A stretch of 64,000 nucleotides of DNA from Candidatus Endomicrobium labiotermitis (GCA_009778965.1 WRFE01000003.1:2585-66584), one strand, 5' to 3'; counted from the stretch's first letter, positions 3,295-8,383 are shown. Numbers and translations: made by a program. The notes: generated from the letters alone by a model not told the origin.

Positions 3295-4215
3295 CTACTT
3301 AATCTCTTTTATTTGGTCTTTTGAAAACAGCATATAGTCGCCGTCGGTTTTAGCAACGGGCTTAATTTTGCCTATTCTTAAATAATATCTTATTGTTGAT
3401 ACCGGAACGCCTGCCGCTTTCGCAAAATCGCTGATTTTAAGCAGTTTATTTACCGGAATATCAGACGCTTTTTCATCAAACATTTCTATATAAACATTCA
3501 TAGAGCGTATATACGCCTGAAGCATAAACTTTTCGTAATTTTCGGTTTTCTGCGGCGTTAATTGTGCCTGTTCAATAACATTTATGTAATGCTTGCGGTC
3601 TCTGGGTCTTATGATTAAAGGCAAAAAACCGTTTTTCAATAAAATGAGATTTAGCAAAAGCCTTGCGGTTCTGCCGTTGCCGTCAATAAAAGGATGGATT
3701 GAAACAAACTTAAAATGAGCGACAGCCGCTTTGTGGGCAGGAGTTAATTCGCTTGTTTCAAGCCATTTCACGAAGTCTTGCATCAGGTCGTAAACTTTCG
3801 CGGGATTTGGCATAATTACCTGCGATCCGGCTATTCTTACGCGGACATTTCTGTATCTTCCGCTAAATTCTTCATCTATTCCTTTCAATATTTGCCTGTG
3901 AATCTCCAAAATATCGTTTTCCGTGATATTTCTTTTATCTTTGGCTAATTCCAAAACAAATTTAAAAGCATCCGCATGATTTTTTGCTTCAAGATAATCT
4001 TTAACCGGCTTTGAACCCGTGGTTATATTGTCACAAATTACCCTGCAGGTTTCTTTTCGCGTTAAAGTATTGCCTTCAATTGCATTAGATGTATATGCAA
4101 GTTCGGTCAAAAGCCAATCCTCCAACACCCTCATTTTCTGGGTATCGCGGGAAATAAGCTTTATTTGCTCTTCCTTTATGGCAATTTCTTTTAAAAGGTC
4201 TTCCATATTTTGCAT
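3295..4215 (-). CDS. Fic-family AMPylase with C-terminal MerR-type HTH, 306 aa (likely start Met at 4206 or 4215)
   Basis: Intact HPFIDGNGRTAR; inhibitory-helix motif SNAIEG; C-terminus LLKISDFAKAAGVPVSTIRYYLRIGKIKP fits a MerR HTH. Confidence 0.9.
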   Translation of the reverse strand: MQNMEDLLKEIAIKEEQIKLISRDTQKMRVLEDWLLTELAYTSNAIEGNTLTRKETCRVICDNITTGSKPVKDYLEAKNHADAFKFVLELAKDKRNITENDILEIHRQILKGIDEEFSGRYRNVRVRIAGSQVIMPNPAKVYDLMQDFVKWLETSELTPAHKAAVAHFKFVSIHPFIDGNGRTARLLLNLILLKNGFLPLIIRPRDRKHYINVIEQAQLTPQKTENYEKFMLQAYIRSMNVYIEMFDEKASDIPVNKLLKISDFAKAAGVPVSTIRYYLRIGKIKPVAKTDGDYMLFSKDQIKEIK

Positions 4216-4285: not shown

Positions 4286-4533
4286 TCAACTTTTTTGTTT
4301 TATCTGCTTTGCCACTGAATTGCATATACGAAAGGGGAGCGCTGCGCCTCCCAACTTCCGCCATACTTTTTGCAGACAGTCAAAAAGTATGCAAAAACCC
4401 TGCCGCTGACACTAATTCGCTCGTATTTTTTAGGCGGCTGTGGAACTCGCTTCGCTCAGACAGTCCTCGCCGACTACTCCTAAAAAATTCTCGTTCATAT
4501 ATGCGTGTATGCGGCACTACAACTACAAAACAT

Positions 4534-4663
4534 GGATTCCGGATCAAGTCCGGAATGACAGAAAGGACAGACCCTTCGGCTTCGCTCAGGGTGACAAACC
4601 GAGAAAGTATGCATTATTACGACAATACCGCCCTCACCCTACCTCTCCCTGACAAGGGAGAGG
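4534..4663. repeat. Cluster of palindromic repeats (two GTCA-tagged REP-like hairpins plus a CCCTCACCCT..CTCTCCC..GGGAGAGG element)
   Basis: ggattccggatcaagtccggaatgac 4534-4559; gacccttcggcttcgctcagggtgac 4570-4595; 4631-4663 recurs at 14050-14085. Confidence 0.85.
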
Positions 4664-5503
4664 AGTTACTAACCAACAATAAGTAAAAAAATACCCTAAA
4701 ACTAGCAAACCTAGCGCTATTCTGTACCAGCCGAATGCTTTAAAATCGTGCTTTTTAACATAACCTAACAAGAAACGTATAGTAACAATAGATACTACAA
4801 AAGCAATTACCATGCCAAGAATGAGCGTTATTGCTTCTGCCGCGGTAAAATTCATACCGAATTTTGAAAGTTTTAACGCGCTTGCGCCAAACATAACAGG
4901 CACTGCAAGAAAAAACGTGTATTCCGCGGCAACGGTTCTTGAAATACCAAGAATCAGCCCGCCGATTATTGTAGATCCTGAACGCGAAGTACCGGGAAAA
5001 ACAGCCGCGATAAGCTGAAATAAACCTATTACAAATGCCATCATAAATGTTATTTCCGCAATTGAATTTATTTTAGGAGGAACGTTTTTGTTGCGGTTTT
5101 CAACAATAATAAAAAATATACCAAACAATATCAGCATTATGGCTACGGTTGTATAGTTATAGAAAAGTTCGTTCATTTTTTTATCAAACAAAACGCCTAT
5201 TACTGCCGCCGGTACGCACGAAACCGCTATTTTCAGCCACATTATTATGGTTTCTTTTTTTATTGCAATTTTTTTGTTTTCAAAAGATACCGGTAAAAGC
5301 CTTTTCCAGTAAAGCACAACAACCGCAAGAATTGAACCAAACTGTATTACAACCAAAAACATCTCTTTAAAAGCTTCGGTTATATTTAAATGTATAAACT
5401 CATCCGCAAGTATCATGTGACCGGTACTGCTTATAGGCAGCCATTCCGTTACGCCTTGTATAATACCTATAATAACAACTTTGACTATTTCTATAAATTC
5501 CAT
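4634..5503 (-). CDS. uppP: Undecaprenyl-diphosphate phosphatase (BacA/UppP)
   Basis: [13 protein letters not shown] and PGTSRSGST motifs; multi-pass hydrophobic protein. Confidence 0.95.
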
Positions 5504-5550
5504 TATTCCTCCTGTGTTTATAACGGTATTCTATGATAAATTTTAAATCA

Positions 5551-5578
5551 ATGCAATAAAAATTCCGGGGCTTGCGTT
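5551..5578 (+). promoter_or_regulatory. Conserved bipartite motif ATGCAATAAAA-N11-TGCGTT (candidate ECF-sigma promoter); also at 8296-8323 and 39976-40003
   Basis: Three copies with identical spacing, each 59-99 nt upstream of an exported-protein start codon. Confidence 0.55.
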
Positions 5579-5636
5579 ACTTTATCAAGGATTTGCAAAA
5601 AGCAGAATCCAAAAAACAAGGAAAAGGAGAAGTATC

Positions 5637-6098
5637 ATGATGAAAAAAATGGCGTTGGTAATGTTAGGATTGTTCGTAATGAGCAGCTTAGGTTTCGCGG
5701 GCGGAATTAAAGGCGAAGGGAAAGGCAAACAAATGGACCCGGAACAGAAAGCTAAATTTGAAGCAATGAAGAAAGAAAGAACGGAATACTTTAAAAACTT
5801 GGAAGTTCTTGTAGCAAAGTATAATGCCGCTTCCGAAAAAGACAGAGTAGCTGTAAAGAAAGAAATTACTAATCTTGTAACAACGAAAACCAATAAAAGA
5901 ATTGCTGATAAAAAAGCAGAAGTAGCAAAACTTGAAAAGAACAGAACCGCAGATGTAAACAAAAAAGTAGATTTTTTGCTTAGCGCGGAAGGACAAGCGA
6001 AAATGCAGAAAATGAAAGAAAAAGGCTTGCAGGCAAAAGGCGATAAAAGCTGCAAAAAAGATTTTAAGAAAAACAAAGGCGAAAAGATTAACGCATAA
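5637..6098 (+). CDS. Secreted Lys/Glu-rich helical protein, paralog A (Spy/CpxP-like), 153 aa
   Basis: Signal peptide ending GFA; RBS aggag; MDPEQKAKFEAM resembles the LTPEQ motif; clear paralog of 8384-8848. Confidence 0.8.
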   Translation: MMKKMALVMLGLFVMSSLGFAGGIKGEGKGKQMDPEQKAKFEAMKKERTEYFKNLEVLVAKYNAASEKDRVAVKKEITNLVTTKTNKRIADKKAEVAKLEKNRTADVNKKVDFLLSAEGQAKMQKMKEKGLQAKGDKSCKKDFKKNKGEKINA

Positions 6099-6113
6099 GG
6101 CTTGAGAATAGGT

Positions 6114-6156
6114 AAAAAGTCACTTGTCCGAAGATGAATCGGACAAGTGACTTTTT
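6114..6156 (+). terminator. Intrinsic terminator (18-bp perfect stem)
   Basis: aaaaagtcacttgtccga / tcggacaagtgacttttt. Confidence 0.9.
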
Positions 6157-6226
6157 CGCTTAGAATAATTTTATTAAAAACAGTCTTTTAAATCGCTGCT
6201 CACTATATTTTCAATACAATACTAAT

Positions 6227-6613
6227 ATGACAAAATTTGGTAAAACAATTATTCCATTCGAGTATCGCCCGGAACCGCATGAACTTGATACGGCAAAATT
6301 TTTCAACAAACTCGGAAAAGATGTAGAATTTCTTGCTCCGGTATATGTAAAAAATGCTAAAACGCCAGATATAAAAATGGACTGACTTTTATGGGAAATA
6401 AAAGCTCCGACAGGCAATAGCAGCCGTACTATTGAAAATAATTTAAGAGCTGCTTTAAAGCAATCCGCAAATCTGATACTTGATTTGCGCAGAATAAAAT
6501 TAAATGAACGAAAGGCTATTGCTCAAATTAACAGAGCGTTTAAAATAAGCAAGAAAATTGTAAGACTGTTCGTCATAAAAAAGAACCAAACTTTTCTTGA
6601 CATAAAAAGATAA
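6227..6613 (+). pseudogene. Stand-alone PD-(D/E)xK nuclease (CdiA C-terminal tRNase-like), 128 codons with an in-frame TGA at codon 53; absent from the ORF track
   Basis: Hand translation: MTKFGKTIIPFEYRPEPHELDTAKFFNKLGKDVEFLAPVYVKNAKTPDIKMD*LLWEIKAPTGNSSRTIENNLRAALKQSANLILDLRR...DIKR; TGA at 6383-6385 lies between the PD and ExK motifs. Confidence 0.7.
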
Positions 6614-6683
6614 ATAACCTATACTACTGTCAGACGGGGCGCAACCACTGCTGAATAGCGGAGGTTTCGCTCCGTCGCTTTTT
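6597..6683 (+). ncRNA. Candidate ~50-nt small RNA (about 6631-6683) with its own sigma70 promoter and terminator
   Basis: TTGACA 6597-6602, 17-nt spacer, TATACT 6620-6625; two hairpins followed by a T-run at 6679-6683; no ORF. Confidence 0.55.
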
Positions 6684-6703
6684 CGCAACAACCGGACAAC
6701 TTG

Positions 6704-6867
6704 GATTGCCACGTCGCTATCGCTACGAGCAATGACGATCAAGAAGACAACATACTGCGCAGTACTGCTGTCATTCCGGGCTTGACCCGGAATCTATGAT
6801 TTTGTAACCCTAAACTTATTTTTCATGTTTTTAACTACCGGATGCTGAAACAAGTTCAGCATGACAC
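6704..6867. repeat. REP-like hairpin cluster downstream of rtcB
   Basis: gattgccacgtc...gcaatgac 6704-6736; gtcattccgggcttgacccggaatc 6770-6794; gatgctgaaacaagttcagcatgacac 6841-6867. Confidence 0.85.
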
Positions 6868-6904
6868 ACATTAAACAAGCCAGCAATGACGACAAAGGCA
6901 CTTT

Positions 6905-8074
6905 CTACCCTTTTACCACAGCAAGCGGGGTTAATTCTGTTTCTATTGAAACTAAATCCCTTTGCGCCTGCATAACATCTTCTATATTTTTATACGCGCC
7001 GGCGGCTTCGTCTAATTGTCCTCTGCCTGTTATTGAATGAATAATTCCTTGCGAATCAAGTTTATTTTTTTCTTTATGGAAATCCAGCTCTCTTATGGCC
7101 TGCTTTCTGCTCATTTTTCTGCCTGCCCCGTGCGAACAGGACATAAAGCTTTCCTCATTGCCAAGCCCTTTTACTATATAAGACTTTGTACCTTGGGAAC
7201 CCGGAATTATGCCGGTTTGCCCGTTATAAGCAGACGTTGCGCCCTTTCTGTGAACCCATACTTCTTTTTTAAAATGTTCTTCCTTTTTGCAGTAATTATG
7301 CGCTATATCAATATCATCATAAAAAGAACATCCCGGTATTTCTTCCGTAAAAATGCCTTTTACAATGTTTGCCATGGTTTTTCTGTTAAGCAAAGCAAAT
7401 TCTACGCAAAAGTTCATTTCGGCAAGATATTCCTTAAATAATTTTTCAGTTATAGGAATAAAGGCTAAATCCGCCTCTTTTGGAACGTGGGGAAAATTCG
7501 GCATATTAAGCTTTTTTGCCTGCAAATTATAGTATTCGGCAACCTGTTTGCCCAAATTTCTGCTGCCGCTGTGTATCATAAACCAAATATGCCCGTCAGA
7601 CCCTTTTTGAATTTCTATAAAATGATTGCCGCCGCCTAAAGTGCCGGCTTGAAAAGTCGCCGCTTTATATTGCTCACTGACTATTTTCATAGGAGTTTTT
7701 GTTTTTTCTTTCCATTTATTGAGCGGCAAAATTTCTACGGGAGTTTTTCTGTGTTCAAAACCTACGGGTATAGATTTTTTAATTTTATGCGTAATTTTCA
7801 GCAAAGTTTTCGCGTCAATTTCTTTAAGATTGGTTTTAACCGCGCGCATTCCGCAGCCTATATCCACCCCAACCGCGTTTGGGATTACAACGTCTTTACA
7901 TGCAAGTATCCCGCCGATTGGCATACCGTAGCCGCTGTGAGCGTCCGCCATTAAAGCTATATGACGAAACGCAAAAGGAAGCTTTGCCAAATTTAACGCC
8001 TGCTTTTTTGAAGCTTCGTCTAAATCTTTACACCATGATTTTATTATAAGCCCTTCGGTTTCTATGTGTTTCAT
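6905..8074 (-). CDS. rtcB: RNA 2',3'-cyclic phosphate/3'-phosphate ligase RtcB, 389 aa
   Basis: DAHSGYG, GVDIGCG, GGGNHFIE, IHSGSR, HRKGAT, SHGAGR and DEAAGAYK motifs. Confidence 0.95.
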   Translation of the reverse strand: MKHIETEGLIIKSWCKDLDEASKKQALNLAKLPFAFRHIALMADAHSGYGMPIGGILACKDVVIPNAVGVDIGCGMRAVKTNLKEIDAKTLLKITHKIKKSIPVGFEHRKTPVEILPLNKWKEKTKTPMKIVSEQYKAATFQAGTLGGGNHFIEIQKGSDGHIWFMIHSGSRNLGKQVAEYYNLQAKKLNMPNFPHVPKEADLAFIPITEKLFKEYLAEMNFCVEFALLNRKTMANIVKGIFTEEIPGCSFYDDIDIAHNYCKKEEHFKKEVWVHRKGATSAYNGQTGIIPGSQGTKSYIVKGLGNEESFMSCSHGAGRKMSRKQAIRELDFHKEKNKLDSQGIIHSITGRGQLDEAAGAYKNIEDVMQAQRDLVSIETELTPLAVVKG

Positions 8075-8114: not shown

Positions 8115-8242
8115 GATTGCGGATCAAGTCCGCAATGACAGTATAGAAATACCGTTTCCCGGGTTGTCACCCTGAACTCGTTTTAGGGTTAGACAATTTA
8201 TATTTTTAGCAACGAGATGCTGAAACAAGTTCAGCATGACAC
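8115..8242. repeat. REP-like hairpin cluster upstream of rtcB
   Basis: gattgcggatcaagtccgcaatgac 8115-8139; gtcaccctgaactcgttttagggtt 8166-8190; 8216-8242 identical to 6841-6867. Confidence 0.85.
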
Positions 8243-8383
8243 CCCTAAAACAAAACCGCAATGACAGACACTATTTTAGCGATTCCCTAAATCAAATGCA
8301 ATAAAAAATCAGCAGCCTGCGTTAGTTTATCAAGGATTCACAAAAAAGACAGAATCCAAAAAACAAGGAAAAGGAGAAGTATC

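Follow-up and report, generated by a model that had tools for sequence, protein, structure and literature searches.

The window analysed here, a 64,000-nt stretch of the genome of Candidatus Endomicrobium labiotermitis (GCA_009778965.1, WRFE01000003.1:2585-66584), contains a pseudogenised nuclease gene, a promoter reaching into its 3' end and the gene of a small hairpin RNA, all on the same strand (Table 1). The nuclease frame translates into 52 aa, a TGA, 75 aa and then a TAA, and because the TGA splits it, the mechanical ORF list gives only the fragments 6227-6385 and 6485-6613. The 128-codon frame that the initial annotation had described as overlooked by the ORF track was thus confirmed, together with the motifs TPDIKMD*LLWEIK quoted for it.

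Table 1. Features of the nuclease/RNA locus and its surroundings (positions counted from the first letter of the window)
Feature	Coordinates	Strand	Basis or remark
Fic/DOC-family protein gene, C-terminal HTH	3295-4215	-	2 kb upstream of the nuclease module
REP-like palindromes	4495-4560		
Lys-rich lipoprotein-like gene, 153 aa	5637-6098	+	starts MMKK
-10-like box TACAAT	6215-6220	+	6 nt 5' of the ATG; sequence reading; toxin mRNA apparently leaderless
CdiA_C-type PD-(D/E)xK nuclease gene, free-standing, 128 codons, pseudogenised	6227-6613	+	one in-frame TGA
In-frame TGA, codon 53	6383-6385	+	protein cut before the ExK motif
Sigma-70-type promoter TTGACA-17-TATACT	6597-6625	+	11/12 matches
-35 box TTGACA	6597-6602	+	followed by a 17-nt spacer
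-10 box TATACT	6620-6625	+	
Small RNA hairpin, 18 pairs	6633-6676	+	fold, covariation, model score
Conserved apical core CCACUGCUGAAUAGCGGAGG	6645-6664	+	near-identity across phyla
GC + U-run (GCUUUUU), intrinsic terminator tail, 3' end of the small RNA	6677-6683	+	sequence
REP-like palindromes (GTCATTCCGGGCTTGACCCGGAATC and GATGCTGAAACAAGTTCAGCATGACA types)	6760-6800, 6825-6870		fill the spacer past the RNA
RtcB RNA ligase gene, intact, 389 aa	6905-8074	-	convergent on the module, ~220 nt past the RNA
REP-like palindromes	8124-8260		
Lys-rich lipoprotein-like gene, 154 aa	8384-8848	+	starts MMKK

The TGA is the single lesion of the gene. Its closest homologues, including L013, have a Gly codon at position 53, and across 21 aligned homologues this position is mostly Gly but also N, E or S, in agreement with the earlier proposal that the toxin was inactivated by a nonsense mutation. 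Since the TGA precedes the ExK motif (E57 and K59 are lost), the local product would be inactive. Comparison of the window gene with the gene of its nearest homologue revealed 16, 11 and 48 differences at codon positions 1, 2 and 3, respectively, indicating that it was under purifying selection until recently. The lesion is probably recent, and the TGA would represent either a young mutation or an assembly error. A change of genetic code, with TGA decoded as Gly or Trp, is unlikely: table 11 leaves rtcB and other adjacent genes open, and the second copy of the gene in this genome lacks an internal stop. At the 5' end, 36 distinct upstream regions of homologues were compared; in 18 of them a -10 box with at least 5/6 matches has its end 6-8 nt from the ATG, and in 20 the distance is 3-13 nt. 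Moreover, the window gene has no Shine-Dalgarno sequence, and an SD-like motif was found in just 2 of the 36 regions; the toxin mRNA appears to be leaderless.

For the protein searches the TGA was read through. The resulting protein matched the Pfam family CdiA_C (PF18451) over residues 45-122 (E 1.8e-18, 66.9 bits; curated cut-off 26.6 bits). An AlphaFold (AF2) model built on 21 homologues (pLDDT 91.7, pTM 0.84) found its best Foldseek match in the PDB in 4g6v_A (E 1.1e-7, TM 0.73; next match E 0.09), and 4G6V chain A was its sole PDB match at E <= 0.001. These two matches place the protein among the PD-(D/E)xK CdiA-CT nucleases, as originally suggested, and within them in the Bp1026b-type family. 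H18, E19, P47, D48, W56, E57 and K59 were invariant in 21 aligned sequences, and E19, D48, E57 and K59 are predicted to be the catalytic residues of a canonical E...PD...ExK site. In a profile alignment to 4G6V, E19, D48 and E57 stand opposite its Glu, Asp and Asp, which we take to be the residues numbered E187, D214 and D223 by Morse et al. 2012, a numbering consistent with the 9-residue spacing. The window family has the canonical ExK lysine, whereas 4G6V has a Tyr at that place. PF18451 is listed for the Bp1026b tRNase and for SitA3 (PMC9990079). The protein is a predicted tRNase or RNase of the Bp1026b-type CdiA_C family.

A first search returned 129 homologues, mostly from Endomicrobia and other Elusimicrobiota, nearly all of them free-standing, mostly 125-135 aa long and with precomputed PF18451 matches on nearly all. 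A profile search against 1.8 billion representatives yielded 844 clusters (50% identity) at E <= 1e-10, and most of the best 150 of these 844 are likewise about 125-135 aa. NCBIfam, PADLOC and sequence searches of the PDB gave nothing useful for the nuclease (no PADLOC model matched), the matches in PHROGs were limited to the C-terminal portion of 'head maturation protease' fusions, and no homologue was found in the PLSDB plasmids.

The CdiA-CT(II)/CdiI pair of Burkholderia pseudomallei 1026b (PF18451, 4G6V) shares the nuclease family and fold with the window protein, with aligned acidic residues, and is a toxin requiring a neutraliser that is encoded directly downstream. The window protein, in contrast, begins at its own ATG and stands alone at 128 aa, without a CdiA filament, a VENN/pretoxin region or CdiB, and its neighbours are a lipoprotein gene and rtcB, so that it does not belong to a CdiBAI locus. 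A CdiI-like protein is absent, and the downstream slot is occupied instead by the promoter and the RNA gene. The earlier observation that no protein immunity partner is encoded thus holds: none adjoins the nuclease gene, and no conserved neighbouring protein gene was detected in the window or among the fetched relatives' loci, the surroundings of which are prophages or defence islands (integrase, Phd, SAVED/AbiC).

With respect to the local neighbourhood, RtcB repairs cleaved tRNA, and its gene was considered as a functional partner of the nuclease. However, no homologous locus has rtcB nearby, indicating that the adjacency in the window is probably a coincidence. The two paralogous lipoprotein-like genes bracket the module together with rtcB, and the module may lie inside a duplicated segment. 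Elements similar to the REP-like palindromes around the module disrupt toxin genes elsewhere (L093 and probably L052). In addition, the Fic/DOC gene and the nuclease module hint at a small cluster of toxin-type genes.

The promoter in the 3' end of the gene matches the sigma-70 consensus closely, and no other site of such quality occurs in 5500-7500. The -35 box lies within the Leu-Asp-Ile codons of the toxin C-terminus and the -10 box just 3' of the stop; the promoter sequence given in the initial annotation was confirmed. The same layout recurs almost everywhere among the relatives: the final codons contain TTGAC, the -10 box stands 16-18 nt further on, and a hairpin follows, usually with a T-run. 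Of 69 non-identical RNA units, 53 have a promoter with at least 9/12 matches in the 45 nt that precede them, compared with 5% of control windows. The units without their own promoter are mostly second or third ones abutting the previous unit, and these would be co-transcribed with it. Furthermore, the C-terminal Asp codon within the -35 box is GAC in 39 of 44 distinct genes (39:5), as against 67 GAC and 187 GAT (26% GAC) among the remaining Asp codons of the same genes (Fisher, p = 3e-15), and the codon before that Asp ends in TT in 43 of the 44, indicating selection at synonymous sites for the -35 box (TTGAC).

The hairpin of the predicted RNA starts about 7-8 nt after the -10 box and is one long interrupted helix, in which a C/U mismatch separates an outer stem of 9 bp from a middle one of 4 bp, and an A/A mismatch separates the latter from an apical stem of 5 bp capped by a GAAU loop (MFE -29.1 kcal/mol, z = -5.0 vs shuffles). 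It had been described as a short, terminator-bounded RNA with two hairpins; the quoted sequence and its U-tract are present, but the fold is a single interrupted hairpin. The tail of the RNA probably also ends the toxin mRNA. No Rfam family reached its gathering score in the window, and nothing overlapped the hairpin on the + strand at E <= 10 when 6100-6950 was searched.

In a gapless alignment of 30 units, 81% of the cells were paired and 15 of the 18 pairs had compensatory double changes, a result equalled in none of 500 shuffles; when the partners were slid, the paired share fell to 34-51%. A covariance model built from this alignment (R1) recovered 74 units, 63 of them distinct, and scored the window RNA at 62 bits, with far lower scores on the minus strand. 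Among the 63 distinct units, 82.5% of the cells were paired (36-51% with slid partners), and compensatory double changes were detected in 15 of the 18 pairs (203 cells vs 74 in shuffles). The outer stem thus varies freely provided that pairing is kept. The apical 20 nt, in contrast, are identical or nearly so between Elusimicrobiota and Saccharibacteria loci, the proteins of which are just 44-80% identical. The loop reads G-N-A-Y with a closing U-A, or else U-G-N-A-A-U; N takes all four values and the letters U-G-N-A are close to universal, being retained even in distant relatives. G.U cells clearly outnumber A.C cells (129 vs 38), and one U.G is conserved, indicating that it is the + strand transcript that folds and not double-stranded DNA. 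Promoter and hairpin together exceed what chance would produce, judging by their recurrence, with covariation, behind homologues in other phyla.

The likeness to tRNA ends (GGGGC, ACCA) noted earlier did not stand up: both strings exist, but in stem positions that vary between loci, and they are therefore not conserved features. A tRNA decoy by sequence was likewise rejected, since the 42 tRNAs of the genome (aragorn) and both of its RNAs shared only chance matches of 6-8 nt (blastn-short). On the other hand, U-G-N-A corresponds to positions 33-36 of tRNAs with GNA anticodons, the loops of which read CUGNAAA in this genome, so that mimicry of an anticodon loop is conceivable; a role of the RNA loop as such a pseudo-substrate is speculative.

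Loci fetched from genomes, metagenomes and assemblies cover Endomicrobium, Ruminimicrobiellum, Ectomicrobium, Saccharibacteria, Nomurabacteria, Lachnospiraceae and Saccharofermentans. The genome of Ca. Endomicrobium labiotermitis itself (1.89 Mb) encodes the protein twice, as the window copy and as an intact, 50%-identical copy on contig C11, and contains exactly two strong matches to the RNA model, one behind each gene copy. A dispersed repeat or REP-like element was ruled out, as there are just these two RNA copies. Across 201 sampled Elusimicrobiota genomes, the RNA was found in 17, with 33 matches lying nearly all directly behind the gene. A closed 1.6-Mb genome of the genus Endomicrobium likewise has an intact module (L057). 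The exceptions among the 33 matches are relics that keep a remnant gene end or promoter (L061, L072 and L074) and orphan RNA units without a recognisable gene relic (L069 and L070), while the match at L062 is a probable false positive.

Linkage was counted for those intact genes, 40 in all, behind which the available sequence extends over at least 120 nt. The RNA model matched behind 30 of them, mostly 8-23 nt after the stop, that is, behind all 30 close homologues that could be checked; conversely, no intact toxin without the RNA was found in this close family. The other ten comprise the nine most distant homologues and L093, which lost its gene end to an insertion. The model does not score below about 40% protein identity, and the hairpins in that range were judged by eye: seven of the nine distant homologues have a promoter and a divergent hairpin on the strand of the gene, and the remaining two (L038 and L109) have a convergent RNA. 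Stand-alone homologues with a 3'-embedded promoter and a covarying downstream RNA, which had been set as a test of the original proposal, were thus found.

In L038 and L109, both from Saccharibacteria, toxin and RNA genes converge from opposite strands. The RNA gene of these loci has a promoter of its own (TTGACA-17-TATATT or TTGACA-17-TATGAT) and, read along its strand, the same loop U-G-G-A-U, suggesting that the RNA probably acts in trans. Moreover, many loci have 2-4 units, each of which copies the gene 3' end, promoter, hairpin and terminator, and together with the convergent RNA genes these arrays argue against a purely cis role as a terminator or 3' UTR element.

The arrays also differ between lineages. 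In rumen Elusimicrobia (L008, L021, L022, L080, L082, L083 and L087), arrays of 2-4 units are composed of three recurring types that differ in the outer stem (GGGCAUUGUAUGU.., GGACACGGGA.., GAUAUUGGGGAUUGA..) and are kept between species in varying order. In a subfamily from termite-gut Endomicrobia (L016, L017, L023, L024 and L026), the protein C-terminus is LLDLKK or FLDFKK and is followed by two different tandem hairpins, the first with two U/U mismatches (CCUUUGCU..AGCUUAGG) and the second of the standard type, often without its own promoter.

At five loci the toxin gene is broken and the RNA kept: besides the window, these are L101 (stop), L052 (insertion), L058 (frameshift) and L055 (5' truncation). 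With the relics L061, L072 and L074, eight loci show this decay pattern. Such an asymmetry would be expected of an antitoxin, but it is weak evidence, because mutations have a target about 4-5 times larger in the gene than in the RNA, and a result of 8/8 would arise by chance about 1 time in 6.

The family and fold of the protein, the conservation, covariation and strand of the RNA, the selection on its promoter, the tight linkage of the two genes and the lack of a conserved protein partner are established. The reading that we favour, with a probability of roughly 0.55, is a toxin/RNA-antitoxin module of type III-like function, in which both the fold of the toxin and the RNA would be new. The protein would be a free-standing, cytoplasmic copy of the PD-(D/E)xK RNase/tRNase domain that tips CdiA, SitA and phage MuF toxins, and a hairpin RNA of about 46-50 nt, transcribed from a strong promoter with its -35 box in the last toxin codons, would replace the protein immunity gene. 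Present in excess, perhaps owing to the near-consensus promoter and, in relatives, to the 2-4 tandem units, the RNA would bind the nuclease via its conserved apical stem and U-G-N-A loop and keep it inactive, as either an inhibitor or a pseudo-substrate. Once transcription stopped, for example because a phage attacked or the element was lost, decay of the RNA would release the nuclease. In the window, the toxin half of such a module would have been knocked out by the nonsense codon with the RNA gene left intact, and the second module, on the other contig, would be intact in both halves. For this reading, we infer from the sequences the toxicity of the protein, the expression of the RNA, the binding between the two, the neutralisation and a role in defence or addiction.

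Among the alternatives, the least implausible, though still unlikely, is that the RNA is a working partner of the protein (a cofactor, an activator or scaffold, or a dedicated substrate), forming a functional ribonucleoprotein and not a toxin-antitoxin pair. The domain, however, is not known in any role but that of a toxin tip dependent on an immunity factor (PMC9990079, PMC5576092), and the loci offer no other immunity candidate. Linkage and covariation would suit a cofactor, a substrate or an autoregulatory site just as well as an antitoxin. The linkage, covariation, conserved apex and trans layout would fit any specific protein-RNA complex, and the several conserved tandem unit types in the rumen loci could mean RNAs with separate roles; nevertheless, the variable part of the RNA is base-paired and so leaves no guide sequence, and its genes outlast broken protein genes, which would be odd for a cofactor without its enzyme.

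Slightly less probable again is that the RNA controls the expression of the toxin and not its activity, either through binding of the protein to the 3' hairpin of its own mRNA or through type I-like pairing. Such control would be in keeping with the same-strand layout, in which the toxin mRNA should end in the same hairpin, and with L038 and L109, where the small RNA would complement the toxin 3' UTR as in 3'-overlapping type I pairs. Elsewhere the RNA usually shares the strand of the toxin and hence cannot be antisense to it, and duplexes of the RNA with the 5' region of the cognate mRNA are no better than non-cognate ones (-16.5 vs -15.9 kcal/mol). Furthermore, a leaderless mRNA has no ribosome-binding site to mask, and the conserved apical loop and stem have no conserved complement in the gene.

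Quite improbable is a plain intrinsic terminator without RNA function, next to a promoter-like sequence that is a by-product of the conserved C-terminal peptide. Hairpin and U-run do resemble a terminator, and the -35 box does overlap conserved L/I-D codons, but synonymous codon choice maintains TTGAC, and the non-coding -10 box is conserved at 17 nt. In addition, T-runs follow most units and are missing from some (L003), the apex is near-identical across phyla while the proteins differ by about 50%, arrays of 2-4 units with their own promoters and convergent RNA genes occur, and orphan units remain without a gene. The least probable alternative of all, a DNA-level element (for example a site at which DNA is recombined or nicked, or one end of a small mobile cassette, seen by the nuclease as a DNA hairpin or cruciform), might be suggested by the fact that PD-(D/E)xK enzymes are mostly DNases and by the varied genomic contexts of the module, as for a mobile cassette, but is contradicted by the roughly threefold excess of G.U over A.C with one conserved U.G, by good folding of one strand only and the far lower minus-strand model scores, by a promoter and a terminator on each unit, by just two copies in the genome of Ca. 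Endomicrobium labiotermitis in place of dispersal, and by a conserved centre and variable outer stem without attC-like conserved outer boxes. An attC/integron site was rejected separately, as the conservation is the inverse of that of attC and no ORFs lie between tandem units.

Compared with known systems, the favoured toxin/RNA-antitoxin module resembles type III systems (ToxIN, CptIN and TenpIN; AvcID and AbiF) in that a protein toxin gene is tightly linked to an adjoining gene for a small, structured non-coding RNA. In classical type III systems, a tandem-repeat RNA lies upstream of a ToxN-like toxin, which processes it. The loci described here have, instead of such an upstream array cut by the toxin, 1-4 units that lie downstream or convergent, most of them equipped with a separate promoter and terminator; in place of a pseudoknot repeat, the RNA forms a long hairpin of simple design, and the toxin has the PD-(D/E)xK and not the ToxN/AbiQ-like fold. 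AvcID and AbiF illustrate that type III systems are not confined to one fold. Further likenesses to type III systems are a dosage of RNA raised by repetition, the occurrence in prophages and defence islands, and the proposed principle that an unstable RNA would restrain a stable nuclease (PMC5086642, PMC8860590, PMC10511110). The 3'-overlapping type I pairs of Firmicutes (txpA/RatA, bsrG/SR4) likewise have a small RNA gene at the 3' end of the toxin gene, and their convergent arrangement is found in a minority of loci here (L038 and L109). However, the RNA here is usually on the same strand and shows no cognate complementarity, so that it is not an antisense RNA to the toxin mRNA, and the toxin is a predicted soluble nuclease and not a membrane peptide.

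The same C-terminal domain occurs on MuF/minor-capsid proteins of temperate phages, the MuF polymorphic toxins (PMC5576092). In the MuF forms the domain is fused to a phage head protein, with a total length of 390-560 aa. On the viral contigs inspected, a -10-like box and a hairpin likewise come after the end of the gene, but the hairpin sequence differs. A hairpin after the stop of such fusions, here of 390-480 aa, was observed in L113, L115, L117 and L125 (IMG/VR) and in L129:1880-1975 (Streptococcus phage phiGBSVK-C_GBSInt4), with a promoter-like site TTGAAx-17-TACxAT 5' of it in L115 and L117. These hairpins form another sequence class, GCCAGCCCACC...GGGCAGGC, and in Streptococcus GACCCACCGCC...GGGCG. 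Their position suggests that RNA partners may exist also for phage polymorphic toxins.

A broader proposal, which we hold tentatively and at a little short of even odds, is that these loci represent a large class in which a hairpin RNA, and not a protein, would immunise against a PD-(D/E)xK RNase of the polymorphic-toxin type, in Elusimicrobiota, Saccharibacteria and other Patescibacteria, Bacillota and possibly phage MuF loci, with the U-G-N-A loop maybe serving as a pseudo-substrate. Searches of the literature on CdiA_C (PF18451), on new type III toxin-antitoxin families and on MuF toxins yielded no description of this nuclease-hairpin pairing. To our knowledge, all characterised CdiA-CT, SitA and MuF polymorphic toxins are neutralised by a protein, and we know of just a handful of families of RNA antitoxins that act on a protein. 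If the favoured reading is true, the module would extend the type III-like systems by another toxin fold and by a new RNA of very simple design, would explain hundreds of 'orphan', immunity-less nuclease genes, would offer a compact and easily engineered protein-RNA pair, and would show a promoter written into the codons of the very gene that is guarded against. Moreover, such modules occur commonly in bacteria that are difficult to cultivate, such as the Endomicrobia of termite guts and rumen and the Saccharibacteria, in which such systems are almost unexplored.
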